This document shows positions 1 to 24,276 of a DNA stretch of 64,000 nucleotides, piece by piece (the stretch's first letter is position 1; every line of letters starts with the position of its first letter). A program made the translations under genes and the position numbers. A model generated the notes under the pieces. The model was not told where the DNA came from and did no database searches. It worked only from the letters and a program-made list of their open reading frames with translations. Where the stretch lies: assembly GCA_044225175.1 (NCBI GenBank), contig JBGAJA010000003.1, positions 69,428 through 133,427 of the forward strand. Direction: 5' to 3'. The DNA comes from Candidatus Omnitrophota bacterium (GTDB lineage Bacteria; Omnitrophota; Gorgyraeia; Zapsychrales; Fredricksoniimonadaceae).

Positions 1-2400
1 TTTGATTTTGCTGTCTTCTTGATTTACATCAACATTCAAATTGTTAAGTTTGAATCCTGAGATTGTTACAAGGTCGCTGGATGCATTCGCATCGATGTTC
101 CACTGCATCCATTGAGAAGCAGGACCGCTAAGTGAAGCTTTCATGGATAACAACCCAGTGAGTTTTAAGGGTTCAAGGGTGCTTTTAAGCTGGGGAAGAA
201 ATCTAGAGGCGTCCTCTAGATTACATTTGAAGGTGCTTTTGATGCTCAGTTGCGGAGTTTTGCCAGAGATATCGACGGATCCAGAAGCATTTAATTGGGC
301 TGATAAAAATTCTCCTGAAAGACTCTTTAGTTCAATGAGATTATCGTTCTTATTAATCTCTCCTTTAATTTCAATTCCATCAAAAGATAAAGATGTCTTG
401 ATTTGTGGATTTTTGAAGTCCATGAGATGTCCGGTGAGTGTTAAGGCTTTATCCATGAATACAGCTGTAAAATTATCCCAGGAGAGAGAATTGCCATCGG
501 CCTTAATTGTTCCTGAAATATGATTAAGTTTTTGTTTAAGAGTTGAGCTTTCTAGGTTGACATCCTTCAGGACAGCCTGGGCATTGATTTTGGCTGTCAG
601 GGGGTCTAAAGCTGGTCCTTCAAATTTAATCATAAAGGAAGTTGTGCCATCTACGGTTAACCCTTGAGCTTTTAGAAGATCAGGGGCCAGGGTTTGAAGT
701 TTACTTAAATCAAATCGTTCACTTTGGGCTTGGATATTTAAAAGAGGCTTAGAGAAATCGCTAATATTCCCAGAGGCAATAATGGTGGTATCAAGAACCA
801 TCAGAGATAAACTTTGAAGATCAATAGAATTTGTTTTCACATCCGCTGTTAATTTAACGTTATTGATTGGACCAAAAGGAAGGCCTTGAACATCGGTATT
901 TTCAAGAGCAAGAGTTCCGCTATATTTCATTCCTGAGGGATTTTTTAAAGGATAAAGGGTTTTTAAATCAAAATGGGCATTGGTATGGATTTCTTTTTTA
1001 TCTTCGAGTTTTATGGTCAAGCCTTCGAGGATGCCTCTGCTTTGAGCATCTAAGATCTGTTGAGTTTGATCGAAGTTGATTTTCAGTTGATCACAATGCA
1101 ACTTTCCCTGCAAGATTGTTTTGTCAAACGCCGCATCATCAGCCATAACATCTAAAGTTCCGTCCATCCTGACAATATTCTTAGAATCTAAGGAAATGAG
1201 CATTTGAGGGGCATGGATTGTTCCCACAAATTTTTTTTCAGGAAGATTTACGTTCAATTGGTCTAAATTTAATTCAAAATTTGCTTGGGTGAGATTCTTG
1301 TCTTTGCTGACTTTGATTTTATTGATTTGAACTTCCCCGGTAATCTTCTCATGTTCACCCAGTGATACGACGCCTTGTTTTAGAGCAACACTGCCTTCCA
1401 ATGAGCCTGCATTTTCCTGCCACCTACCGTGCTCAATTCGAGCGCTCAATGTTCCGCTGCCGGAAAGAAGAGGGGTCGTAATCTGGGTATTGAGCAATGA
1501 GAAGTTACCTTTGAAGGCAATATCATTCTTCTTTAATGTGATGTCAGCATTGGTTGCTTGAAGCTCTCCTTTGAAGCTTTGTTGATCAAAGGCAGTTTCA
1601 ACATTTTTGATACTCCAGCTACCAGTGAGCCTCATATCATCAGGAGCATATTGAATGTGGGCATTGACTTGTTCCATCAGGCCGTTAGTTAAGCTGAAGG
1701 GAAGGGGGCCTGGATAAAATCTGAAATAATCTTGAGGCTTAATATTTTTAATATTCACTTGAGCTTTCAGAGATTGATTAGGGATTTGATAGCTTCCTTG
1801 TAAAGAAATGGAGGCTTGTTTTTGGGGGATAGTAAGTTGCCCATCAAAGCTGATGCCTGAAAGAGACAGGCCTACTTTAAGGTTAATAGGATCAATAATT
1901 TCACTCCAAACACTTTGGCCTTGAATGTCATCAACACGGAACTTCCCATTGTTAATCGTAATTCCACCGACGGAAACATCGACAGGAGAAGGTCTGGAAG
2001 ATGGAGATGTTTGAGGAATAATTAATAAATCTGAGAAGTTCCAAGTGTCTGTTTGATGGACCAAAAGGACGGATAAAGAATCGATGTTAAGAGAAGTTAA
2101 GATGAGTTTATGTGTTTTAACACCTGGAACAAAAAGAATGCCCGAGGAGATTCTTTCAGCTTGAAGGAAGACTTTATCAAGAGAGTCCTTCTGGTAAATC
2201 TTGATATTATTAATAACAATCCCTTTAACCCAGCTAAAGTGAATAGACTCGATTTCAACTTTGCGTTTAAGAAAATTTTGGGCCTGTTCAATGGCGATTT
2301 TTTTAACAATGGTAGGTAGAAAAACTTGATTGGCCCAGAATGTCAAGGAGCCTAAGAAGAAGATGATACTGAGGGTTATGATAATCCATTTGTGTTTCAT
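1..2400 (-). CDS. AsmA-family (AsmA/TamB-like) outer-membrane biogenesis protein. The N-terminal ~800 aa lie in the window and the C-terminus runs off the left edge.
   Basis: Hand translation of the reverse complement from ATG at 2400 gives MKHKWIIITLSIIFFLGSLTFWANQVFLPTIVKKIAIEQAQNFLKRKVEIESIHFSWVKG. Spot checks of this frame at 2221-2400, 61-120 and 1-60 are stop-free. A single N-terminal TM followed by a long beta-rich repeat region is typical of AsmA-like proteins. It is absent from the ORF track because it has no in-window stop. Confidence 0.6.
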   Translation of the reverse strand, partial: MKHKWIIITLSIIFFLGSLTFWANQVFLPTIVKKIAIEQAQNFLKRKVEIESIHFSWVKGIVINNIKIYQKDSLDKVFLQAERISSGILFVPGVKTHKLILTSLNIDSLSVLLVHQTDTWNFSDLLIIPQTSPSSRPSPVDVSVGGITINNGKFRVDDIQGQSVWSEIIDPINLKVGLSLSGISFDGQLTIPQKQASISLQGSYQIPNQSLKAQVNIKNIKPQDYFRFYPGPLPFSLTNGLMEQVNAHIQYAPDDMRLTGSWSIKNVETAFDQQSFKGELQATNADITLKKNDIAFKGNFSLLNTQITTPLLSGSGTLSARIEHGRWQENAGSLEGSVALKQGVVSLGEHEKITGEVQINKIKVSKDKNLTQANFELNLDQLNVNLPEKKFVGTIHAPQMLISLDSKNIVRMDGTLDVMADDAAFDKTILQGKLHCDQLKINFDQTQQILDAQSRGILEGLTIKLEDKKEIHTNAHFDLKTLYPLKNPSGMKYSGTLALENTDVQGLPFGPINNVKLTADVKTNSIDLQSLSLMVLDTTIIASGNISDFSKPLLNIQAQSERFDLSKLQTLAPDLLKAQGLTVDGTTSFMIKFEGPALDPLTAKINAQAVLKDVNLESSTLKQKLNHISGTIKADGNSLSWDNFTAVFMDKALTLTGHLMDFKNPQIKTSLSFDGIEIKGEINKNDNLIELKSLSGEFLSAQLNASGSVDISGKTPQLSIKSTFKCNLEDASRFLPQLKSTLEPLKLTGLLSMKASLSGPASQWMQWNIDANASSDLVTISGFKLNNLNVDVNQEDSKIK

Positions 2401-2644: not shown

Positions 2645-4381
2645 ATGAAAATCCAGCCTAATAGTCTCCTGCAAGTTTCACCTCTTTGGCTTTGCCTTTT
2701 CCAGTGGTCTAGCTTGATTTTTTTGGGTTTATTGATTTATGGCCAGAGTTTTGGTTTTGGCTTTGTTTTTGATGATGATCAATTCATCGTTAATAATCCT
2801 TACATTCATAACTTAAGCAAGGTCCATGAGATAGAACAAGCTCTTCCTTTGACGCGTTTGGTGGGGATTTATACATTTGCTTTAAATTATCATTTCCATG
2901 GTTTAAATCCCACCGGGTATCACCTCTTTAATGTTGTTCTCCATCTTGTCGTTACCGGATTAGTTTGGGCTTTGGCAAATTTATTGTTTAAGATCGTGGG
3001 GAAAGAACCAAAACAATTGCCATTTTTCATGGCCTTACTTTTTCTTGTTCATCCACTTCAAACCCAGGCAGTTACCTACATTTCTCAACGATTCGAATCG
3101 CTGGCCACATTATTTTATCTAACCACCATTTATTGTTATTTATCTGCCCGAATTTCTAAGGACATGCTGTCAAAGGTGATTCTTTTTTTGATTGCAGCTG
3201 TGAGTGCTTTTCTTGGGATTATGACTAAAGAGGTAGCAATCACTATTCCTTTAATGCTTTTAGCATGTGAATGGATTTTACTGCCTTCTAAGAATCCATC
3301 GGCAAAGTCATCTAGAAATTTAATGATCAGTGTAGGAGGCGTTTTATTCTTATTGGTATTTTTGAAACTTCTTCGAAGCGGTTTCAATATGTTTATTACA
3401 GCTTTACCGTCGCAATCCCACGATGGTGATACCATTGTGCTTGGAAATTATCTTTTGACTCAAATGAGAGTTTTTCTGACTTTTGTACGGTTATTTTTTG
3501 TTCCATATCCGCAGAATGTTGACTATGATTACCCTCTTTCAGTAAGTATTATTGATCCCTTATTGACCCTTGTAGGGGCAGGTCTGGTTTCTTTTCTAAT
3601 CCTGGCCATGATTAGAATCCGCCATAAATGGCCACTCATTTCTTTTGGGTTGGCTTGGGTTTTAATCACATTTTCAATTAATCTTGCACCTCGTGCGAAT
3701 GTCATTTGGGAACATAAATTTTATTTGATGTCATTTGGCTTCTTAATTGCAACGGTGAGTGTTTTAGCAAATTTGATCCACAAAAGGAGTTCATTAATCT
3801 TTATTGTATGTGCTGTAACGGCCGGGTTTACTTTCTTGAGTTTCCAGAGAAACCATATTTGGCAAAATGATTTTACACTTTGGGAAGATGGCATCAAACG
3901 GTCCCCAAATAAGGTTCGTGTGTATGTAGATTTAGCCAAAGCTAAAGGCACCCATGGGCAATTACAGCAAGCAATCACCCTACTTACCCAGAAATTATCT
4001 GTAACTCCTAATCATTATGGGTCCCTCATGGCTAGGGCAGGATTACAGTACCGCTTAGGGAATTATGATTTAGCGACGGAAGACCTCAGGCAAGCGGTCA
4101 TCGTAAGGCCTAATTTTATTGATTTTTATAAGCTCTCTTTGATTTACAGTGAACAAAAACAGATGGATAAAGCATTAGATGCCTTAAATACATCCATCTT
4201 ATTGAATGATAATTTTCTTCCAGCTTATATTGATCGAGCTATGATTTTTGTGCAGAAAAAGAATTATATTTTTGCTGTGGGAGATCTTGTGAAGGCCCAG
4301 AAGATACAGCCTCAAAATAAAGTTATCCAGAACAATATAGAATATTGTTTTTCAAAATTAAGGGTGCAGAAATCGCCTTAA
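2645..4381 (+). CDS. TPR-repeat membrane protein of the protein O-mannosyltransferase-like (GT39/TMTC-like) type
   Basis: Polytopic N-terminal region with an FDDDQFIVNNP (DD loop) motif typical of PMT/TMTC-like glycosyltransferases, and C-terminal TPR-like repeats. The ORF opens at GTG 2594; the first ATG is at 2645, so the start is uncertain. Confidence 0.55.
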   Translation: MKIQPNSLLQVSPLWLCLFQWSSLIFLGLLIYGQSFGFGFVFDDDQFIVNNPYIHNLSKVHEIEQALPLTRLVGIYTFALNYHFHGLNPTGYHLFNVVLHLVVTGLVWALANLLFKIVGKEPKQLPFFMALLFLVHPLQTQAVTYISQRFESLATLFYLTTIYCYLSARISKDMLSKVILFLIAAVSAFLGIMTKEVAITIPLMLLACEWILLPSKNPSAKSSRNLMISVGGVLFLLVFLKLLRSGFNMFITALPSQSHDGDTIVLGNYLLTQMRVFLTFVRLFFVPYPQNVDYDYPLSVSIIDPLLTLVGAGLVSFLILAMIRIRHKWPLISFGLAWVLITFSINLAPRANVIWEHKFYLMSFGFLIATVSVLANLIHKRSSLIFIVCAVTAGFTFLSFQRNHIWQNDFTLWEDGIKRSPNKVRVYVDLAKAKGTHGQLQQAITLLTQKLSVTPNHYGSLMARAGLQYRLGNYDLATEDLRQAVIVRPNFIDFYKLSLIYSEQKQMDKALDALNTSILLNDNFLPAYIDRAMIFVQKKNYIFAVGDLVKAQKIQPQNKVIQNNIEYCFSKLRVQKSP

Positions 4382-8989: not shown

Positions 8990-9066
8990 GGTGGCTGTAG
9001 CTCAGTTGGTAGAGTACTTGATTGTGGTTCAAGTTGTCGCGGGTTCAAATCCCGTCAGCCACCCCA
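8990..9066 (+). tRNA. tRNA-His (anticodon GTG) with encoded G(-1) and 3' CCA
   Basis: G-1 plus GTGGCTGTAGCTCAGTTGGTAGAGTACTTGATTGTGGTTCAAGTTGTCGCGGGTTCAAATCCCGTCAGCCACC, then CCA. Anticodon loop TTGTGGT. The extra 5' G pairing with discriminator C is the tRNA-His hallmark. Confidence 0.9.
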
Positions 9067-10629
9067 TATTTCGTTTTTGAGGTATAAATCCTCCCAACCA
9101 GTTGTATTTGCAATAGTTTGCAGAGGTTCGAACCGGTTGTGGAGGATTTTTATTTCAGGAGCGAGTCCCAAAAGGAAAGAAAATTTTTGCTCGACGGTAA
9201 TATCAAGTTTTCGATCTTGTAAGAGAAGGTTCGAACTTAACTCCGCAGTAATACTTTGTTTGACCTGCCAGTCGCCTTCCTGAAACCGTTTTTTGGCCGA
9301 TTCTGCAAAGTTAAAGGCCTTTTCCGCCGCATCAATCCAATTAGGGCTAGAAGAAGCGTTTAAAGAAGACTCTAGGCTTTCTTTTTCTTTTAAGAGGGCG
9401 CTCCGTTTAGCCGCGTATTCTTCTGCAGTGATTTCTTCATTTACTCGGAGGCTGAGAAGGGTATCGAGTTTTCTTATCGCTGTTACCACCTTTTCTTGGA
9501 TGGCATTTTTGCTGTTAAGGGATGCGGTATCATCGTGTTCATTTTCTGCCCTTAGCTGTTTAATAGCCCATTGATGGAAAGGGAGAGGAATGGAAATTTG
9601 ATCCAAGACCCCCAAGATTTGTTGATCTATTTCATCATTGCGGACGGCGGGTTGAGAGCAATCACGATTGATGCGTTTGGTGCAATGGTAATAAGTATAG
9701 TTATGAATATTCCCGTTCTTTTGATGTTTTGTTCGATGCTCAGAAGTGATCGATGCGCCACATTCTCCACAGCGAACTAACCCTCTAAAAGCAAAACCGC
9801 CGCGTTTCTTCAGCTGTTTAACCCGACCGTCCAGAATATCTTGGGCAAGATCAAACTCCGCTTTTGAAATCATGGGTTCATGGACACCTTTATATCTTTT
9901 GCCTTGCCAATCGAATTCGCCATAATAAAAAGGATTTCTTAATATCCTATAAAAACTGCTACGACCAAATTCTTTTCCAGCTCTTCCTCTAAGGCCCATT
10001 TTGGTCGCTCTCAAATAGATTTGTTCAGCCGAACATTTTTCTTCTAACAGGATGTTCCAGACTTGTTTCATGATTGGAAAGAGGTGGGGATCCGAATAGA
10101 TGGGAAGGTGTTCCGGTAAATTATGGCGATTGTTTAAATAACCGATTGGAGGCTTATGGGGGAGCCAACCTTTCTCAGCCTTAGCCCGTTGACCACGTTT
10201 GGTATTTAGGCTTAGATCCAAGATAAACTGATTGGCCATCCCGAATTCGACACTCATCATTAAGACGTTATCGGAAGGAAGGTAGCCTTTTTGGAAGGTC
10301 TGGATGTGCTGTAGGACGCCTTGTTGAAGCATCCAGGTGATATTGCCGCCATCAACCGGATTACGTGCTAGGCGGTCTAGTTTCCAACACAGAATGCCAT
10401 TTGCTTTGCCCTCATGGATCTGCTGGAGCATTTGATTAAAAACTGTTCGACCTGGTGCTTTGGCAGACTTTTCTTCAGTGCAAGTGCCGATGATATTTAA
10501 ATTAAGGTCTTTAGCCAGTCTTTTGAGCTCTTCGATTTGGGAGGGAATAGATGCGACTTGCTTATCTTCATTTTCTGATGATTTGCGTGCGTACAGTAGG
10601 TATTTATTAGCTATAGATAAAGATGTCAT
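9055..10629 (-). mobile_element. Large serine recombinase (resolvase/invertase N-domain, recombinase domain and Zn-ribbon); island integrase
   Basis: The N-terminus LLYARKSSENEDKQVASIPSQIEELK carries the catalytic Ser context of serine recombinases. At 524 aa it has the large C-terminal extension. The gene's 3' end overlaps the last 9-12 nt of tRNA-His. Confidence 0.8.
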
Positions 10630-10799
10630 TTTTCAATACGTTTAAGTAATTTTAGTAGATCCGATTTCTTATATAAACGGTAATTGTTCATAGGATGCCG
10701 GTGGGGTGTTAATTTGCCTTGCTTGTCCCAATTTCGTAGTGTTTGACTGGTTATTTTAAGTAGTTTTGCAGCATCTTTGATGCGAAATAGTTCAGACAT
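10626..10799 (-). CDS. 57-aa MerR/excisionase-family HTH protein, candidate recombination directionality factor
   Basis: MSELFRIKDAAKLLKITSQTLRNWDKQGKLTPHRHPMNNYRLYKKSDLLKLLKRIEK. Its stop overlaps the recombinase start as ATGA. It is below the ORF-track size cutoff. Confidence 0.6.
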   Translation of the reverse strand: MSELFRIKDAAKLLKITSQTLRNWDKQGKLTPHRHPMNNYRLYKKSDLLKLLKRIEK

Positions 10800-10863
10800 T
10801 GGGATCTCCTAACCTTATAAAACATTATAAATTATAACTCGAGTTATCATTGTATTCAACGAC

Positions 10864-11361
10864 TTATTTTTGTGATTCTTTTAAATATGCTTTGGCTTCT
10901 TTAGGTGAATATCCATATTGGAAAAGACGTTCAAATTGGTGGCTGTTTCTGCAACTTTGGTAAGTTAAATCATGACAGTGTCTGCAACCAAAGTATTTAT
11001 CTACTAAATAAAGTATTCCCACGCGTTTTAGGCAAGGAACACTGTTCTTTACAAGGGGACAAATAAACCACCATTTTTTATCTCCTATAAAGTGGCTGGG
11101 GGTAGAGGTGAGTTTGACCTTGTAATCCATAGTATTTCGTCCATCCATTTCTTGATTTGTAAAAGTGTACATAAGGCGCATATATTTATCATTAGGATTA
11201 ATTGATATGATGAATTGAATGCTTCCTAATTCTTGACCAGAAGGGTCTTGCCAAGACATCACCCCTTTCTTTATGCCAGTAAAAAAGCCTTTTTTATTTA
11301 GTCTTACAGTACTTATGGAATTGCACTCTTCCACAGTTAATTTCTTAGCATGACGCCCCAT
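10864..11361 (-). CDS. Cys/His-rich hypothetical protein (possible Zn-binding)
   Basis: 165-aa ORF with CxxxxxxxxC and CRHCH clusters. No known family recognised. Confidence 0.4.
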   Translation of the reverse strand: MGRHAKKLTVEECNSISTVRLNKKGFFTGIKKGVMSWQDPSGQELGSIQFIISINPNDKYMRLMYTFTNQEMDGRNTMDYKVKLTSTPSHFIGDKKWWFICPLVKNSVPCLKRVGILYLVDKYFGCRHCHDLTYQSCRNSHQFERLFQYGYSPKEAKAYLKESQK

Positions 11362-11414
11362 TTGCGATCTCCTTTTTTCTAAATCATCGATGATTTATTT
11401 AATCTTATTTACTT

Positions 11415-12077
11415 TTATGTAACGCTATCTACTGTGCCGTTAAATGTTCTTTTGATTTCATGGATTTTCTTAAGACTTTCATCATCAATATCTTTAAGCT
11501 TTACCATTTCTTCATGCGTGTATATGATCCCATCTTCAAAATGGATACAACCGTCTTTAGACACAAAATGTAATTCCAGCTTCTCTGAGAAAAATCTTCT
11601 GGGGAGCTTTGGGACGTTTGGGACGGCATTAACAAGACTACTTTTCAAAGAGAAGTCAGCAGGTTTGGTTATAGATTCTTTTCGTGTGTGAGTCTCATTA
11701 ACATGTCCCAAGTGTCCCAACACATTCTTCTCAATGACCAATGGTTTATGTTTTTCTGCGGGTTTAATCTTCATTAAAGATCCAGTTCTTGGGTGAAGGG
11801 ATACTTTGTCATTTTTGGTAAAACTATTTTCTTTAATGCCAACAAGTGCGAATATTCGTTGATAATGATTTCCACCCTTGCCGCCGGCATTAACCACACA
11901 TCCAAATGCCCCAGTAGAAGCAACAAAAAGGTGGTTGCCTTTTTGATCATGCCCAGTCTCCGCGCAAGCCGGACACTGGGCAATGATATTATTTCCTTGA
12001 TGTTTGACTTTTGAAAGTTTACTGATGTCCAACATCTTTGAGCCTAACTTTTCTATAACCTTTATGGTCTTTTCCAT
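11415..12077 (-). CDS. Zn-ribbon protein (primase-type CPxC ... FGC zinc-binding domain) encoded downstream of the primase-helicase
   Basis: Motif AQCPACAETGHDQKGNHLFVASTGAFGCVVNAGG resembles the primase zinc-binding domain. The track ORF (to 12206) overlaps the upstream gene by 188 nt, so an internal Met start (12077 or 12035) is more likely. Confidence 0.45.
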   Translation of the reverse strand: MEKTIKVIEKLGSKMLDISKLSKVKHQGNNIIAQCPACAETGHDQKGNHLFVASTGAFGCVVNAGGKGGNHYQRIFALVGIKENSFTKNDKVSLHPRTGSLMKIKPAEKHKPLVIEKNVLGHLGHVNETHTRKESITKPADFSLKSSLVNAVPNVPKLPRRFFSEKLELHFVSKDGCIHFEDGIIYTHEEMVKLKDIDDESLKKIHEIKRTFNGTVDSVT

Positions 12078-14109
12078 TTCTGGGAATGGATCCAGATTTA
12101 GGTGTTGAGAATAATTCCAACATGTATTTTTCCAATTCTTTGGGAATAACGGTTGGAGGCTTTGGATTCCATTGTTTCTCAGCGCAGTATTCAGAATAGG
12201 CGTCAATGATTTCTTGAGTAGTTAGAGTAGAGGGGGCATCTTTTATTACTCTGTCATTGAGGAAATGTCTGATGCTATCGCTTTCTGATAACAACGCTTC
12301 TACGATGGATTTTTGATTATCTTCAAGGTGAATATCACCATATTTATTGATATCATTAAAGATCATAGCAAGGCCATGAAGCGCCCAATTCAGAATGCCA
12401 GATCCTTCTTCTTTGATGAGTAAATCTGCAAAATCAGGGATCTTTTTAATTGGAGGAGGGCATTCAAATCTTACTATTAAAAGACGCCGTCTCCAAGCGC
12501 CGGCATCAGAGTATAAGCGTATTTGAAGGCGAGAATTAGAGGTGATTACAACGCAGAATTTACCTTGGATTGGAAAATTTCCAGTTCCTCCTTTTTGTTC
12601 CGCATCAAACCAATCGCCACCGACTAACCCTTTGATAACGTGGGCACCTTTCTCAGAGAGGAAGTTCCCCGGAACATCAACTCCAACCAAGAGGGTTTTC
12701 TTTAAGTAACGATATAGTTCAAATCGTTCGCTGAGGTGTTTTGTACGTAATTCGGTAAAGTTTGCTCTTCCTATCAGATGTTGAATGATTAAAGATAATT
12801 GTGATTTTCCCCGACCAGATTCTCCATCAAGGATAAGGAATCGCTGAATAAGATTTCTTCCCAATAAGCAGAGGCCAAAATACTTTTGGATGATCGTTGA
12901 ATCAGACGCACTAACAGCAGGGAGGAGTAGTTCATTTAGGAATCTGGGGCATTTTGCATCTTTATCGTATGGGATTGGACATTGGTTTCTCGAATAAAAA
13001 TCAGGAGAGAAACTAACAAAATCTGCTTCATTGGTGTCGTTAAATACAATGATCCCATTTGCAAGATGTACAAATTTCTTATTTTCTTTGTCAAAGGCAT
13101 TTTGTTTTTCACTAATACCTTTTAATTGAGTGACGATATGAGTAAGGCAGGTGTTATACCTTTTTAATTCAAGTGATGGGATTTCTTGTTCGCGGGAGAC
13201 TTCCAATATTCTAGAAGAGATTTCTTGCTTAATTTGATCAATTGAGAGAGTCTCACGGAGGCCTGTTTCTGGATTATAAATATAGAAAGCCTTTTCATTA
13301 GGCTCAAAAAGTAAAATGTGTTCATGGTTGTACGTGCCCGCCCAAAAACATTCATTAATGGCGTAAACAATTCTTTTATCGTTTATATAATATGGTTCAC
13401 CGTAAAGATTAATTAATTCTTTGAGATCCCCCGTTGATTCTATTTCTTCAGACACTGTTTCTTTTTCAAGAGGGGGTTCATAGTAAGGCGTGTTTTGTAT
13501 TATTTCTTCGAAGTCTGATTTTTGTCCTCCAGCTTCTATCCAATCGGAAATATCTTTCACAGCAGTGTTGTTAATATCAGGTAATTCAATTATTTTTAGT
13601 TTGATCCCTTGGGGGGCTAATTTATTAGTAATATCAAATGCATGGTTACGTCCAACCTCATCTTTATCGGGCAGTATAATAACCTCCTGAGCGTCCTTAA
13701 TTGAATCTGTGTAGTTATTTTTCCATTTGCCAGCTCCCATGGCGCATGTAGTGGTAGCGTAACCCCATGAGGCAAGGTTATCTGCATCTTTTTCTCCCTC
13801 GCAAATAAAGATTGGTTGGCCCTGTTTAATCGCTTCAATTATTTCTGGTAAGTGGTATAAAACTGGTTCCACGGTCTCTAACCAGACTGCATTCGCTGAA
13901 GGAGGGGCAGACTTATCATTTGAACAATTCTTTATTAGCGAATAAGATCCCAAAGGCTCACGTTGTTCATACCAACCTTCATTACGTCCATAGGCAAAAA
14001 ATCCATTGCAGGGGCGCCCTTGAAAGAAATCTTTCTTGTCTGTGCGTAAAATTTGAAAAATAATATTTCCTCGAGTGTCTCTGTAGTCATACTTTTTTAC
14101 TATGTTCAT
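12019..14109 (-). CDS. Bifunctional DNA primase (TOPRIM) / SF3 (D5-like) helicase, replication protein of an integrative element
   Basis: TOPRIM motifs IFICEGEKDADNL and IILPDKDEVGRN; Walker A GESGRGKSQLSL in the C-terminal half. Confidence 0.75.
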   Translation of the reverse strand: MNIVKKYDYRDTRGNIIFQILRTDKKDFFQGRPCNGFFAYGRNEGWYEQREPLGSYSLIKNCSNDKSAPPSANAVWLETVEPVLYHLPEIIEAIKQGQPIFICEGEKDADNLASWGYATTTCAMGAGKWKNNYTDSIKDAQEVIILPDKDEVGRNHAFDITNKLAPQGIKLKIIELPDINNTAVKDISDWIEAGGQKSDFEEIIQNTPYYEPPLEKETVSEEIESTGDLKELINLYGEPYYINDKRIVYAINECFWAGTYNHEHILLFEPNEKAFYIYNPETGLRETLSIDQIKQEISSRILEVSREQEIPSLELKRYNTCLTHIVTQLKGISEKQNAFDKENKKFVHLANGIIVFNDTNEADFVSFSPDFYSRNQCPIPYDKDAKCPRFLNELLLPAVSASDSTIIQKYFGLCLLGRNLIQRFLILDGESGRGKSQLSLIIQHLIGRANFTELRTKHLSERFELYRYLKKTLLVGVDVPGNFLSEKGAHVIKGLVGGDWFDAEQKGGTGNFPIQGKFCVVITSNSRLQIRLYSDAGAWRRRLLIVRFECPPPIKKIPDFADLLIKEEGSGILNWALHGLAMIFNDINKYGDIHLEDNQKSIVEALLSESDSIRHFLNDRVIKDAPSTLTTQEIIDAYSEYCAEKQWNPKPPTVIPKELEKYMLELFSTPKSGSIPRNGKDHKGYRKVRLKDVGHQ

Positions 14110-14290
14110 GACGGGTTTCCTTTTTGTGTACTATTTTGTAGAATCTGATTAAATGCATAGCCAGCTCAGCAGCTTCGTCTGTTGATAAATCAATTCCGAA
14201 GGTTGATTTATAAATATTACGGAATTCGTTGGTAGCTTCTTTAGTTAACATTGTCAGACAATAAAAAACCCTATAAGTTAAGATGCTCAT
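14087..14290 (-). CDS. Small hypothetical protein upstream of the primase gene
   Basis: 67-aa ORF overlapping the primase start by 23 nt. No homolog recognised. Confidence 0.3.
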   Translation of the reverse strand: MSILTYRVFYCLTMLTKEATNEFRNIYKSTFGIDLSTDEAAELAMHLIRFYKIVHKKETRHEHSKKV

Positions 14291-14406: not shown

Positions 14407-15159
14407 TTATAGTTTTAATAGATCAGATAGATAAACAGGATGATCGTCATCTAGGAGTCCCATTTCTGCATAAAATTCTATTTGCTTTTTTGGTCGATCT
14501 CTATACTCGGCGAGAATTCTTTGAATTTGAGACTCGCTAAGATCATATTTATTGAATTCATTTTCAGGAATATTCTTTTCAAGATAATTCGCTAGACGTA
14601 TTTTTATTTCTTTGAGAGGAAAACGACCTTTTTTCCAGCCTAAATCTTTAAGACATTTTATAAGGTAATTATTTCGCATTTGAGTGGCATGGTTAGCCCG
14701 AGGATTCTTTCTACCATCATTAAGAAATTCAAGTTTTCGCAGAATGGTTTTTGTGTCGGTCAAATATTTGGGCCCATCGATCGGTATTCTTTTGTTCTTA
14801 AAAATGGAAATAGGTAGTTCAATGGAGTCTTTAGGAAAGCTATCTTGATAAATATAGGTGGGAATTGAATCTTGAATTATTTTGTGAAAAAAATCTCCGT
14901 ATTGTTTTTGAACAATTTTCGGCAGCATATGGTTTAGGTATTTACCCTTCCAGTAAACCATGAAATTATTATGCTCTGTTTTTTGTCCTTCTGGTTTAAG
15001 GGAATTAGAAGGAAGTTCAGAATAAAAGGCGGCAGAAAAATCTTTGAAGATTAAAACAGGTGGTTGATGCTTAATGGGAATAATAACCACACCATTAAGG
15101 TTTTTAAAGTGCCAGTAATCGATGGAGAAGCGTTCAGATTCGGTATCCATATAAAACAT
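14407..15159 (-). CDS. Hypothetical protein (island cargo)
   Basis: 250-aa ORF with typical coding composition. No family recognised. Confidence 0.45.
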   Translation of the reverse strand: MFYMDTESERFSIDYWHFKNLNGVVIIPIKHQPPVLIFKDFSAAFYSELPSNSLKPEGQKTEHNNFMVYWKGKYLNHMLPKIVQKQYGDFFHKIIQDSIPTYIYQDSFPKDSIELPISIFKNKRIPIDGPKYLTDTKTILRKLEFLNDGRKNPRANHATQMRNNYLIKCLKDLGWKKGRFPLKEIKIRLANYLEKNIPENEFNKYDLSESQIQRILAEYRDRPKKQIEFYAEMGLLDDDHPVYLSDLLKL

Positions 15160-15311
15160 TATAAATGCAGTAATAATTTTGACCAGTTTTGATTTAGTGT
15201 TTAATTTACAAAAACATCCGAAGGTGATAATCTAATTACAATTACCATGGAGGCGGTATCGATTAATAGCCTTTAAATACATATTTAGGAACACGCTTTC
15301 CTAATTTCCAC

Positions 15312-15396
15312 CAACTTGCAGGAGGAAAGGACTGTGTCCCGACGCACTTTATTGTGCGTTCGGGGCAGGCGGTCTTTCGCTTTTACCTGCAAGTTG
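15312..15396. other. GC-rich nested stem-loop element: 11-bp outer helix enclosing a 10-bp inner hairpin. Candidate structured RNA or origin/regulatory site of the island.
   Basis: Perfect 11-bp outer inverted repeat CAACTTGCAGG at 15312-15322 / CCTGCAAGTTG at 15386-15396. Inner hairpin CCCGACGCAC (15338-15347) / GTGCGTTCGGG (15354-15364) with one bulge. It lies in a 257-nt divergent intergenic region. Confidence 0.35.
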
Positions 15397-15467
15397 GGCG
15401 ATCGACTTAAAAATGCTTGCCCCTTTTTTATTTGTTCAAGGGGAAGCAAAATAAAAAAGGGGGCAAG

Positions 15468-16019
15468 GTGAGAAATATTTTATTAGTTTTAATGAGTTTT
15501 TTGTTAGCTGGCTGTGCTGCTCTAGGCATCGAAAATTTACCTGGAACTATAAGTGAGCGTGTTTCTGGTTTTGATAACACTAAAGAAATAACTATGGAAC
15601 CAGCATGGATTACCGGTGGCCCCATTAAGCTGAATTTATATAAAACTTCTAAAATGGCAGAGAATGAAGCGATTTTAGTGGTCACCGTAAAAGGCGCCTA
15701 TAATTTTTCTAATAAAAGTTCCTTACAGATTAATATTGATGGGAATATAGTCACACTTGAGTCTATAGATGTGCTTACTGATGTTTCAACAGATCCGGGG
15801 GTGTACAATTCAGTTGTCTCTATTTCAGCAGAAAATTGGTCATCTAAACGGTATGAGGTTACAAAAGATCTTGTGAAGAAATTAATTGATGCTAAGGAGG
15901 CCTGGGTAAAAGTTAATTTATTTAAAGATTATGTTGAGGGGAACTTCTCAACAGATAAGCCTATGATGGCGCGACCAGCATTTAGGGAGTTTTATAAAAA
16001 AGCTTGGGAAGCTAAATAA
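15468..16019 (+). CDS. Lipoprotein (lipobox LLAGC)
   Basis: GTG start 15468 preceded by GGGGG; signal peptide (M)RNILLVLMSFLLAGC. The track ORF starts further upstream at TTG 15417. Confidence 0.55.
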   Translation: MRNILLVLMSFLLAGCAALGIENLPGTISERVSGFDNTKEITMEPAWITGGPIKLNLYKTSKMAENEAILVVTVKGAYNFSNKSSLQINIDGNIVTLESIDVLTDVSTDPGVYNSVVSISAENWSSKRYEVTKDLVKKLIDAKEAWVKVNLFKDYVEGNFSTDKPMMARPAFREFYKKAWEAK

Positions 16020-18394: not shown

Positions 18395-18593
18395 ATAAGA
18401 TTAAACATTTAGTGAGATCCCGGTCTTGGAAATTTTTGTTTTTCAGAAGGGAAGATGCCCGACGGACTTTGTTACTAGGGTTTGTAATGAAACAACGTCG
18501 GTGTATGACTGTTTCAGTCATGGTGTAGCGTTCTAGACGGCTAACTTACCTCTCCCACAGACCTGATATTCACAAACAAGCAACGCGGAAAAT

Positions 18594-22329: not shown

Positions 22330-22679
22330 CGTTATCTGGTAAGGCGTATATTTCTTTATTTAAAGAAGCTAAAGCCAAAGGTTACAGAATTACAGTTTTT
22401 TATTTAAGTATTCCAAGTAATAAGCTTGCTCAAGAGAGAGTGAAGCAGCGCGTTAAAGAGGGTGGGCATAATGTGCCAATAGTTGATATTAATAGGCGAT
22501 TTATTAGAAGTTGGCAGAATTTCATTAACCTTTATATGCCACTAACAGATTCTTGGTTGTTACTTGATAATTCAATGCTTAAACCAATTGAAGTAGCAAA
22601 ATGTGATCATGGTAAGATCAAAGTTTTGAATAAATCTTTATATAAAGAATTAATGGAGGGTAGAGATGACAAGTCTTAA
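22330..22679 (+). pseudogene. 5'-truncated paralog of the zeta-toxin-like ATPase gene (C-terminal ~110 codons only)
   Basis: Translation KEAKAKGYRITVFYLSIPSNKLAQERVKQRVKEGGHNVPIVDINRRF... aligns with the C-terminal half of the 23518..24090 protein (KEVKSKGYSVHIFFLWIPSEDLAKQRIKQRVKQGGHHVPDADVKRRL). The Walker-A N-terminal half is missing. Confidence 0.65.
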
Positions 22680-22833
22680 ATCTAGTACATTAATTTTAAA
22701 TAAAGCAGGAAAAGCAATGCGAAGTGCTGTACGTAAGGTTTTAGCAGAAAAGAAATTGAGAGGTGAGCCTGCTATTATTTGGAAGGATGGCAAGGTTGTA
22801 AAAGTCCCTGCAAGTCAATTAAGCAAAGCTTAA
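22666..22833 (+). CDS. 55-aa small protein, paralog A of the partner gene downstream of the zeta-like ATPase
   Basis: MTSLKSSTLILNKAGKAMRSAVRKVLAEKKLRGEPAIIWKDGKVVKVPASQLSKA, with SD GGAGGG 6 nt upstream. It is paralogous to 24087..24257 (shared core RGEPxIIWKxGKVVKxPA). Confidence 0.5.
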   Translation: MTSLKSSTLILNKAGKAMRSAVRKVLAEKKLRGEPAIIWKDGKVVKVPASQLSKA

Positions 22834-22834
22834 G

Positions 22835-22866
22835 CAGGTACGGATAACGTCCCGCCAGCGACCCCA
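22835..22866 (+). repeat. att-like degenerate copy of the tRNA-His 3' half (core CCCGCCAGCGACCCCA)
   Basis: 14/16 identity to the tRNA-His 3' end CCCGTCAGCCACCCCA (9051-9066). Preceded by GGTACGGATAAC, which resembles the T-arm. Confidence 0.5.
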
Positions 22867-23435: not shown

Positions 23436-23459
23436 AGATAAAATAGTTACAAAACTCGT

Positions 23460-23475
23460 CCCGTAAGTGACCCCA
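23460..23475 (+). repeat. Third degenerate att-like core (CCCGTAAGTGACCCCA)
   Basis: 13/16 match to the tRNA-His 3' end. Extended similarity (16/21) to copy A including the preceding CGTCCCG. Confidence 0.3.
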
Positions 23476-23517: not shown

Positions 23518-24090
23518 ATGCCTAAGCTTTATATAATTGCTGGTCCTAATGGCGCCGGAAAAACTACATTTGCTAAAGAATTTCTTCCTTCCTATGCGAA
23601 ATGTTCCAATTTTGTCAATGCAGATTTGATTGCGTTAGGTCTTTCTCCTTTCAGTCCAGCTCAAGTCAGTATTAAGGCTGGTAAATTGTTACTCGGTGAA
23701 ATCGATAATTTCATAATCCGTAAGATGGATTTCGCCTTTGAAACAACTCTCGCTGGAAGAACATATATAAATTTAATCAAAGAAGTTAAATCTAAAGGAT
23801 ATTCTGTACACATTTTCTTTTTGTGGATACCCAGCGAGGATTTAGCTAAACAAAGAATAAAGCAACGGGTCAAACAAGGTGGGCATCATGTGCCTGATGC
23901 AGATGTCAAAAGAAGGTTACGCCGTAGTCTGAAGAATTTTTTTAATCACTATAGTCCCTTGGTTGATGGATGGGACATTTTTGATAATTCCGGATCAGAG
24001 CCAAAATTGGTGGTTAAATCTAATGAAAAAGGGTTTCAGATTATTGATAAAGAACTTTATCGATATTTGCTCAACAAGGAGAACATATGA
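23518..24090 (+). CDS. Zeta-toxin-like / AAA_33-type P-loop kinase-fold ATPase
   Basis: Walker A IIAGPNGAGKTTFA. The overall fold matches zeta-toxin/UDP-GlcNAc-kinase-like proteins. 190 aa. Confidence 0.6.
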   Translation: MPKLYIIAGPNGAGKTTFAKEFLPSYAKCSNFVNADLIALGLSPFSPAQVSIKAGKLLLGEIDNFIIRKMDFAFETTLAGRTYINLIKEVKSKGYSVHIFFLWIPSEDLAKQRIKQRVKQGGHHVPDADVKRRLRRSLKNFFNHYSPLVDGWDIFDNSGSEPKLVVKSNEKGFQIIDKELYRYLLNKENI

Positions 24091-24257
24091 TTAAGAAAGT
24101 CGAAGGTGATGTTCTTTCTAAGAAAGCAGAAAAAGCCATGAAGAAGGCTGTGCAAGGTGTGATTGCAGACCGCAAAATGCGAGGCGAGCCTTTGATCATT
24201 TGGAAGAACGGTAAAGTTGTAAAGATTCCTGCTAAGGACTTAAAGCGGTTCGGATAA
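24087..24257 (+). CDS. 56-aa small protein, paralog B, translationally coupled (ATGA) to the ATPase
   Basis: MIKKVEGDVLSKKAEKAMKKAVQGVIADRKMRGEPLIIWKNGKVVKIPAKDLKRFG. Its start overlaps the ATPase stop. Its 3' end overlaps the att-like repeat. Confidence 0.5.
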   Translation: MIKKVEGDVLSKKAEKAMKKAVQGVIADRKMRGEPLIIWKNGKVVKIPAKDLKRFG

Positions 24258-24276
24258 CCTCCCGCCAGCGACCCCA
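24245..24276 (+). repeat. att-like degenerate copy of the tRNA-His 3' half (GCGGTTCGGATAACCTCCCGCCAGCGACCCCA)
   Basis: The core CCCGCCAGCGACCCCA is identical to copy A. The upstream GGTTCGGATAACC mimics the tRNA T-arm GGGTTCAAATCCC. Confidence 0.5.

Follow-up and report, generated by a model that had tools for sequence, protein, structure and literature searches.

A conserved RNA element of about 165 nt is described here from a 64-kb stretch of the genome of a Candidatus Omnitrophota bacterium (hereafter the window, meaning the whole stretch of DNA that was analysed). A GC-rich hairpin stands at its centre. The element is probably a cis-acting terminator/anti-terminator leader gating the rightward operon of an integrative island, and it represents a widely conserved RNA family that had not been catalogued before, in which a known principle of regulation would be put to use in an unusual niche. 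The original prediction, made from the letters of the window, had described the hairpin and listed an RNA leader among several candidate functions. That candidate is supported by compensatory changes, strand-specific G·U pairs and loops of the UUCG or GNRA type, and further by a predicted intrinsic terminator directly ahead of a co-oriented gene. What had been missed is that the hairpin is only one half of a two-state switch, that its 3' arm doubles as the 5' strand of the terminator, and that a 5' hairpin and a 3' hairpin sequestering the Shine-Dalgarno (SD) sequence are parts of the same RNA element.

In the window, the region 15300-15410 folds as one long hairpin, with a predicted energy of −56.0 kcal/mol for the plus-strand RNA (z = −6.9, 0/200 shuffles) and of −45.4 kcal/mol for the minus strand (z = −5.9). 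The perfect outer inverted repeat reported around a GC-rich hairpin was confirmed, with a corrected length of 12 instead of 11 bp (CCAACTTGCAGG, 15311-15322; CCTGCAAGTTGG, 15386-15397) and in a structure stronger than first described. The enclosed hairpin is formed by CCCGACGCAC and GTGCG-U-UCGGG. For the full leader (15280-15470) the predicted fold reached −86.1 kcal/mol (z = −8.2). Using a profile of 63 family members, nhmmer matched the plus strand at 15273-15435 (E = 2.7e-41), and this was the sole match in the window. No second copy of the hairpin was found within the 64 kb, and this single copy rules out a repeated element of the MITE or REP type.

Following the plus strand, the element begins with the P0 hairpin (UAGGAA/UUCCUA, 15286-15303), which is paired in 93.6% of the alignment cells with U·G and C-G variants. 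The loop and 3' arm of P0 make up region 2 (15291-15302), whose alternative partner is region 3. The 5' arm of the outer stem P1 (15311-15322) pairs with its 3' arm (15386-15397). Between them are located the nearly invariant region 3 (GGAGGAAAGGACUGUGUCCCGA, 15321-15342), which is the 5' strand of P2 and pairs with region 4 in the read-through fold or with region 2 in the terminating fold, the tip hairpin P3 with its variable stem (15343-15358; covariation at columns 93-113, 95-110, 98-107 and 99-106), and region 4 (UCGGGGCAGGCGGUCUUUCGC, 15360-15380), which serves either as the 3' strand of P2 or as the predicted 5' strand of the terminator. Region 5 (GCG..CGACU-UAAAAAU-GCUUGCCCC, 15398-15423) is the putative terminator 3' strand, the pairing of which was chosen by the RNAalifold consensus. 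It is followed by the U-tract UUUUUUAUUU of the predicted intrinsic terminator (15424-15433), which is nearly invariant in the family and lies outside the search pattern given below. The predicted terminator stem itself is composed of GGGGCAGGC (15362-15370) and GCUUGCCCC (15415-15423), directly followed by UUUUUUAUUU. Segment 6 (15449-15467) holds the SD sequence GGGGG (15459-15463) and pairs with 15416-15433 in the minimum free energy (MFE) structure of 15280-15470. The first gene of the operon encodes a 183-aa lipoprotein (15468-16019) with a GTG start and the signal peptide MRNILLVLMSFLLAGC. As the lipoprotein gene starts at this GTG, the intergenic gap measures 308 nt; the value of 257 nt given before holds only for the mechanical TTG start of the open reading frame (ORF) at 15417.

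Relatives of the element were collected in two ways. Screening of 80 genome loci with related primases by BLAST revealed the hairpin in two Omnitrophota metagenome-assembled genomes (MAGs), at 81% identity in locus L074 and 74% in locus L029. The three-way alignment of these with the window displayed compensatory changes in the outer stem as well as an invariant block just 3' of the hairpin, TTAAAAATGCTTGCCC(C)TTTTT. Metagenomes were then scanned with a pattern made of the invariant 16-mer and GCGGTC from the 3' arm of the hairpin, which yielded 78 loci against a handful estimated by chance; groundwater and peat were among the sources of these contigs. After removal of two evident chance matches, truncated copies and duplicates, 63 distinct sequences from MAG and metagenome loci were retained in the alignment (A3), to which all column numbers refer. 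The search pattern fixed columns 121-126 and 162-176, i.e. part of region 4 and most of region 5. Conservation of the structure in the relatives is evident from compensatory changes across the 63 sequences.

The family has no counterpart in the collections that were searched. Rfam 15 at gathering thresholds returned only three tRNAs for the whole window, so that the element itself scored in none of its families. When 15100-15600 was searched at E ≤ 10, spurious matches were obtained, mostly to an AU/GC hairpin at ~15392-15479 and none over the GC-rich hairpin. Among the viral contigs of IMG/VR, no exact match to the hairpin and none to a pattern from its 5' half were detected, and all 55 matches to the invariant 16-mer were chance occurrences without the hairpin. 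BLAST searches of a phage collection and a plasmid collection gave no match, and no description of this RNA was found in literature searches.

Two mutually exclusive folds are backed by the alignment. Fold 1, the read-through fold, combines P0, the outer stem P1, P2 (region 3 with region 4) and the tip hairpin P3. In A3, 96% of its cells are paired and 16 pairs are doubly changed, and none of 500 shuffles reached any of the measures; sliding the partners by 1-3 columns lowered the pairing to 39-49%. The clearest signal comes from P1, which is paired in 98.1% of cells and shows double compensatory changes in 8 of its 12 pairs. Each of its six central positions occurs with three or four types of Watson-Crick pairs, and 31 different hexamers are found at this place among the 63 sequences. 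The loops of P3 in the relatives are often of the UUCG or GNRA type.

In fold 2, the terminating fold, region 2 pairs with region 3 and region 4 with region 5, the latter through the helices GGGGCAGGC/GCUUGCCCC, GGUCU/AGACU and CGC/GCG, ahead of UUUUUUAUUU. This fold is the consensus returned by RNAalifold. It reaches 98.3% of paired cells in A3 with 11 doubly changed pairs (0/500 shuffles). The helix between regions 2 and 3 (columns 36-39/86-89 and 43-49/72-80) is paired in 97% of cells, the CGC/GCG helix (columns 130-132/152-154) in 100%, with the pair types CG 53, UA 9, GC 1 and GC 49, GU 8, AU 5, and the predicted terminator stem (columns 114-122/170-178) in 98.8%. Columns 114-120, the partners left unfixed by the search pattern, always pair, and columns 119-120 carry only A or G opposite U. 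On the sequence side, the case for the predicted terminator stem rests on these unfixed partners, the CGC/GCG helix, the near-invariant U-tract and the two members found independently of the pattern. Parsimony on a neighbour-joining tree gave 7-24 changes of pair type per covarying pair, which are upper-end values from a short alignment.

The columns that discriminate between the folds are of particular weight. Pair 39-86 of fold 2 occurs as UA (29), CG (19) or UG (13) and is never unpaired, while column 86 (G or A) is mismatched with its fold-1 partner in 31 of the 63 sequences. Columns 81-85 and 90-92, on the other hand, are nearly invariant and are paired in fold 1 only. Both folds are therefore needed, as neither of them accounts for the conservation by itself. 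Invariant segments with two partners beside covarying stems with a single partner are the expectation for a bistable RNA.

The functional RNA is the plus strand. It is the more stable strand in all 63 members, by ~10 kcal/mol, and many pairs in both folds are G·U, hence A·C on the opposite strand. No conserved reading frame was detected in the family, which excludes a leader peptide. Hexamers resembling a −10 box cluster 21-40 nt 5' of P0 in about half of the members, several of them with good −35 boxes; P0 is therefore part of the transcript at least in those members. When the helices defining each fold were enforced, fold 1 was on average ~3.5 kcal/mol lower than fold 2, from a total of ~55, and this held for both sequence subgroups; a cruder estimate placed the difference at −0.3 kcal/mol. 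The terminator fold appeared in MFE predictions only when columns 25-55 were included, and never when the RNA started at column 56. P1 alone contributes about −17 kcal/mol. Should it be able to persist in fold 2, joining the two apical loops, termination would become more favoured, a point reached by inference only.

The position of the genes following the element fits control by termination. Among 46 loci in which a co-oriented ORF preceded by an SD sequence was detectable, 38 have its start 15-60 nt (median 27.5) past the U-tract, and the start codon in the window is located 34 nt past it. This distance is too short for a separate promoter of the downstream gene, which is placed to depend on read-through. 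The segment 3' of the U-tract is complementary to GCUUGCCCC throughout the family (−10.9 vs. −5.8 kcal/mol for shuffled sequence). In the window, the resulting hairpin CUUGCCCCUUUUUUAUUU/AAAUAAAAAAGGGGGCAAG (15416-15433/15449-15467) reuses the terminator 3' strand and the U-tract, and is predicted in the MFE structure to bury the GGGGG of the lipoprotein gene.

Taken as a leader, the element would work as follows. The RNA would be transcribed on the plus strand as a series of segments, each complementary to both of its neighbours. In the ON state, P0 (1:2) would form, region 3 would pair with region 4 and the P1 arms would close the hairpin 15311-15397; region 5 would be left without a partner and the polymerase would read through. 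Afterwards region 5 would pair with segment 6, which in the window would cover the ribosome-binding site of the first gene. In the OFF state, pairing of region 2 with region 3 would leave region 4 free for region 5, and GGGGCAGGC/GCUUGCCCC followed by six U residues would act as an intrinsic terminator ending the transcript at ~15430. The hairpin would accordingly represent the anti-terminator half of the leader. The trigger, as a best guess, would act on the 5'-most segments (P0/region 2), where the input is expected because the terminating fold needs them. It might be an RNA-binding factor or a small ligand stabilising the 2:3 helix, a factor blocking P0, or a differing 5' end of the transcript, with the upstream sequence present or absent.

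Several observations weigh against this interpretation. The transcription start site, termination and read-through are all inferred, as is what flips the switch. No convincing plus-strand promoter was identified in the window, where the sole candidate is weak (TTTACA-15 nt-GATAAT, 15205-15231). P2 of fold 1 shows no double compensatory changes of its own, and predictions on the nascent chain gave fold 1 as the default, which makes read-through the thermodynamic default. The predicted terminator departs from a simple hairpin in that an insert of 46 nt is closed by its 9-bp stem, and because of this long insert the terminator was not called by a consensus terminator scan. Covariation in the main terminator stem cannot be judged in the metagenome members, as the pattern fixed it; a scan of this design would miss members lacking the terminator, and the members independent of the pattern are only two (L029 and L074). 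Finally, the downstream genes share no function, unlike those of classical metabolite riboswitches, and no protein partner is conserved across the types of islands.

The candidate small RNA of the original prediction is a live rival, standing behind the RNA leader, and we regard it as unlikely. According to this explanation, the element would be a gene of its own with a product of ~150 nt ending at the U-tract, acting in trans as a regulator or immunity-type RNA; the product would display three hairpins with P1 as a loop-loop pseudoknot, and read-through into the cargo would be incidental. The terminating fold is indeed the RNAalifold consensus, and it could be the ground state if P1, with its ~ −17 kcal/mol, persisted between the apical loops. 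The A-rich and U-rich linkers beside the P1 arms are conserved. The −10-like boxes 21-40 nt 5' of P0 in about half of the members, a nucleotide conservation far above that of any neighbouring protein and the mutually unrelated downstream genes also speak for it. Against this stand the 16 bp over which regions 3 and 4 are complementary and the invariant columns 81-85/90-92, both explained by the long hairpin only, and the ORFs starting 15-60 nt past the U-tract without promoter room. Moreover, segment 6 is conserved beyond the terminator, which would be pointless for a terminated small RNA. No further target complementary to the P1 arms was found in the fetched loci; a role of P1 as a guide for an external target was rejected, since 429 kb of loci contained no other complementary site save the second copy of the element in locus L167.

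A more elaborate proposal, which we consider distinctly improbable, would retain the switch and extend it. The element would be an orphan 'domino' riboswitch of mobile islands that senses a ligand or, alternatively, RNA polymerase or another conserved machine of the host. P1 would persist as a loop-loop pseudoknot between the two terminating-state hairpins, and the physiology of the host would decide on expression of the operon (cargo, and in some islands replication). The centre of P1, hypervariable and yet perfectly paired in every case, would moreover serve as an element-specific identity tag conferring heteroimmunity via pairing of the P1 arms in trans.

Passive punctuation appears slightly less probable still. 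Here the element would be a constitutive, possibly bidirectional terminator or insulator and/or a stabilising 5' hairpin, parting the core from the cargo of the island without any switching. In its favour, a GC-rich stem with U-tract is present on the plus strand. On the minus strand, the hairpin of region 5 and segment 6 (15416-15467) is followed by AUUUUUAA, a terminator-like arrangement that could stop antisense transcription too. The terminator half alone (…UUAAAAAUGCUUGCCCCUUUU) recurs after the first cargo gene in two loci (L170, 7390-7422; L184, 1077-1125), which suggests that this module can be reused independently of the remaining element. A plain terminator, however, needs neither ~165 nt nor three layers of exclusive, covarying helices of near-equal energies, and a gene without a promoter would be shut off for good by a constitutive one located 15-60 nt ahead of it.

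A DNA-level element, whether an origin of replication, a site at which the primase-helicase initiates on single strands or an operator bound by a protein, is very improbable. In the window and six related island types the element does occupy a divergent promoter region, 1.2 kb upstream of the primase operon, and P0 is a near-perfect DNA palindrome that might be an operator. Yet the pairing relies on one-strand G·U pairs with the plus strand more stable in 63/63 members, the stems covary instead of conserving their sequence (the opposite of a protein-recognition palindrome), the tip loops are RNA tetraloops, the terminator and U-tract belong to the unit, no iterons or other repeats were seen around it, and in several islands a primase was either not found in the few kb fetched or is located 2-4 kb downstream in the same orientation (L170, L204, L210, L029, L144, L163). 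The primase-linked origin suggested previously is thus not borne out, as the linkage to the primase is variable or absent and the strand asymmetry and the terminator point to RNA instead of duplex DNA, and assignment to replication origins failed on the same grounds and on the lack of iterons.

The element resembles attenuators and riboswitch platforms (trp-type, PyrR- and T-box-type) in its likely mechanism. It shares with them a leader made of a GC-rich stem and a U-tract with an ORF directly after it, and a terminator 5' strand that can be captured by an upstream segment. The chain of overlapping alternative helices 1:2, 2:3, 3:4 and 4:5 is that of the trp leader, and here as there the two-partner segments are highly conserved while the single-partner stems covary. 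Three of the features expected of an attenuator were found, namely that region 4 pairs with either region 3 or region 5, both conserved, that the GC-rich stem directly precedes the U-tract, and that the co-oriented gene is placed to depend on read-through. In contrast to known attenuators, the element matches no Rfam family and lacks a leader peptide as well as features for tRNA binding, and neither an aptamer nor a protein partner was identified. Instead of a metabolic pathway, it would regulate the mixed cargo of mobile elements, and an extra 5:6 hairpin is present past the terminator.

By analogy, a likeness to leader-RNA immunity may also be drawn. In P4-like satellites and in the phages P1/P7 (P4 CI RNA, c4 antisense RNA), an untranslated leader RNA decides on premature termination by RNA-RNA pairing. 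The P4 RNA is processed and acts in trans by pairing with seqA/seqC, and the termination there depends on a factor. The present element is similarly found in a mobile element with a primase-helicase of the P4 family, and its complementary segments co-vary between elements. It differs in that all pairing partners are in cis and the predicted termination is intrinsic; furthermore, the RNA of the window leads the operon divergent from the primase and not the primase operon. No match to Rfam C4 (RF01695) was obtained and no further copies of the complementary segments were found in the window or the loci, which speaks against membership among the P4 CI/P1 c4 immunity RNAs. The put RNAs of HK022 and the EAR RNAs of Bacillus modify the polymerase to ignore downstream terminators and have no overlapping terminator of their own. 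Like them, the element is a structured RNA of very high conservation heading a long heterogeneous operon of a mobile element, but no sequence or model similarity to them was found. By analogy, its high conservation could stem from contact with RNA polymerase or a similarly conserved machine of the host.

The islands carrying the element can be compared with tycheposons and PICI-like elements, which are islands of 10-20 kb at tRNA or tmRNA genes that have a terminal integrase, either a tyrosine or a large serine recombinase, and carry variable cargo together with a small replication module of the primase/helicase type (bioRxiv 10.1101/2020.12.28.424599). The likeness is one of layout only and concerns the host element, not the RNA; the main text of that paper mentions no non-coding RNA or terminator. 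A retron msr-msd was rejected since no ORF between 9 and 26 kb contains a reverse transcriptase domain and the downstream genes differ in every locus. The motif GTTGGGC in the element fits the GTTRRRY of integron attC sites. By inspection, an attC site was nevertheless dismissed, as the outer stem is uninterrupted over 12 bp, the element is located 5' of genes and no integron integrase is present. The element could not be assigned to any of the catalogued families tested.

Hardly any regulatory RNAs are known from integrative islands beyond those of model Proteobacteria and Firmicutes, and bacteria of the Omnitrophota type have not been cultured. The element provides a compact, sequence-defined marker for islands with tyrosine or serine recombinases, and it is a rare case in which comparative data alone back two alternative folds of one RNA. 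If termination control holds true, it would show how such islands keep lipoproteins, PEP-CTERM proteins, restriction systems and other cargo silent or inducible, in some cases along with their replication genes, and it would add to the orphan riboswitch-like leaders a new candidate with a trigger amenable to biochemical search.

In the window, the hairpin lies within an island, at the point where the core module and the rightward operon diverge. The island begins at a tRNA-His gene (8991-9066, plus strand), which is its integration site and left end. The core module, annotated with Pfam, occupies 9055-14290 on the minus strand and includes a large serine recombinase (9055-10629), two small ORFs, a Toprim/D5_N/DUF5906 primase-helicase (12019-14109) and, beyond the latter, a 67-aa ORF; an orphan gene of 250 aa follows on the same strand (14407-15159). 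The plus-strand genes running rightward from the element encode the lipoprotein, an 89-aa ORF, a DUF4429-SHOCT protein, a BamE-like protein, a 314-aa ORF and the DUF4238 protein.

All informative loci of the element are integrative islands, of two kinds. In the first, the serine recombinase, the primase, the 67-aa ORF and the orphan gene are divergent from the element beside tRNA-His (window, L074/L146, L149/L150, L151, L166, L196, L219); tRNA-His adjoins the related islands L151, L196 and L210, and L210 is similar except that no primase is located between the recombinase and the element. In the second, a tmRNA is followed by a tyrosine integrase ending tens of nt upstream of the co-oriented element (L170, L204), a layout of integrase and element that recurs in L159, L194 and L202. 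tRNA-Ser was found near the element in L152/L217, L160 and L176. Clustering of 610 neighbouring ORFs yielded only clusters of integrases, serine recombinases and primases, none of them universal, and nothing informative came from scanning the divergent orphan genes against PHROGs and Pfam. In L167, two full copies of the element are arranged in inverted orientation 2.1 kb apart (1230-1389, plus strand; 3519-3681, minus strand). They flank paralogous lipoprotein genes, with homologues of the 250-aa orphan of the window located outside them, and reflect either an inverted duplication or an assembly artefact.

The genes downstream of the element are heterogeneous and include lipoproteins, small secreted proteins, PEP-CTERM proteins, a SpoVG-like protein and a DnaD-like protein. 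Another one is methyltransferase-like and was read by eye as a component of a type I restriction-modification system. In L029, L144 and L163 the primase is encoded downstream in the same orientation as the element. Relatives of the lipoprotein gene found elsewhere (L003-L005) have no RNA upstream, and the 250-aa orphan has a single distant homologue, with an upstream gap of 85 nt and no hairpin. Since relatives of both flanking genes lack the RNA, it belongs to the island and not to these gene families, and a leader specific to either family was rejected. One of the lipoprotein relatives is a paralogue encoded elsewhere in the 272,723-bp source contig, outside the window (L003, P0008), which is 58% identical and has no RNA upstream.

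Two further gene sets recur in the neighbourhood. A protein of 55-90 aa with the motif (E/D)IRNKLQ…L(D/E)L(L/V/I)S.DK and no family assignment is encoded by the first ORF after the element in L148, L183 and L192, and ~260 nt upstream of it in L147 and L174. In the tyrosine-integrase islands L152, L160, L194, L208 and L217, a trio of genes is located 1-3 kb past the element, coding for a 274-aa protein, a SpoVG-like protein of 99 aa and a 110-aa winged-helix protein resembling DnaD or replication initiators; in these islands the RNA apparently heads a replication/regulation operon.

An echo of the hairpin sequence had been reported at 18454-18474, upstream of the DUF4238 gene, as a shared motif or regulator-binding site. 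The sequence is present as quoted and the hairpins named there exist, but the similarity does not exceed chance and the region is unrelated to the element. For the pattern, which was defined post hoc, 0.29 chance occurrences are expected and at least two matches were obtained in 7 of 100 shuffles. The folding of the region is no better than that of shuffled sequence (z = −1.7, 12/200), the profile of 63 members found nothing near 18.4 kb even at E ≤ 1 with the filters off, and no Rfam match was obtained. A second copy of the element at this place was rejected on these results, and with it the motif proposed to be shared with the DUF4238 upstream region.

The probable right end of the island is marked by a partial tRNA-His-like repeat on the plus strand (22829-22866), the last 17 nt of which (TCCCGCCAGCGACCCCA) are identical in 15/17 positions to the 3' end of tRNA-His. 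It is the first of three direct repeats of 38 nt (22829-22866, 23438-23475, 24239-24276). The first and third end in TCCCGCCAGCGACCCCA and match tRNA-His at 9050-9066 in 15 of 17 positions, while the copy at 23438 is weaker. They probably represent partial-tRNA att repeats that delimit the island on its right side, along with one or two short cassettes left as remnants. At the left end, the ORF of the serine recombinase with its stop codon overlaps the last 12 nt of tRNA-His on the opposite strand (9055-9066), which fits integration into the 3' end of the tRNA, unusual for large serine recombinases. At the right end, paralogous ORFs of 55-56 aa (22666-22833, 24087-24257) end at two of the direct repeats, and a zeta-toxin-like gene (23518-24090) is located between them.

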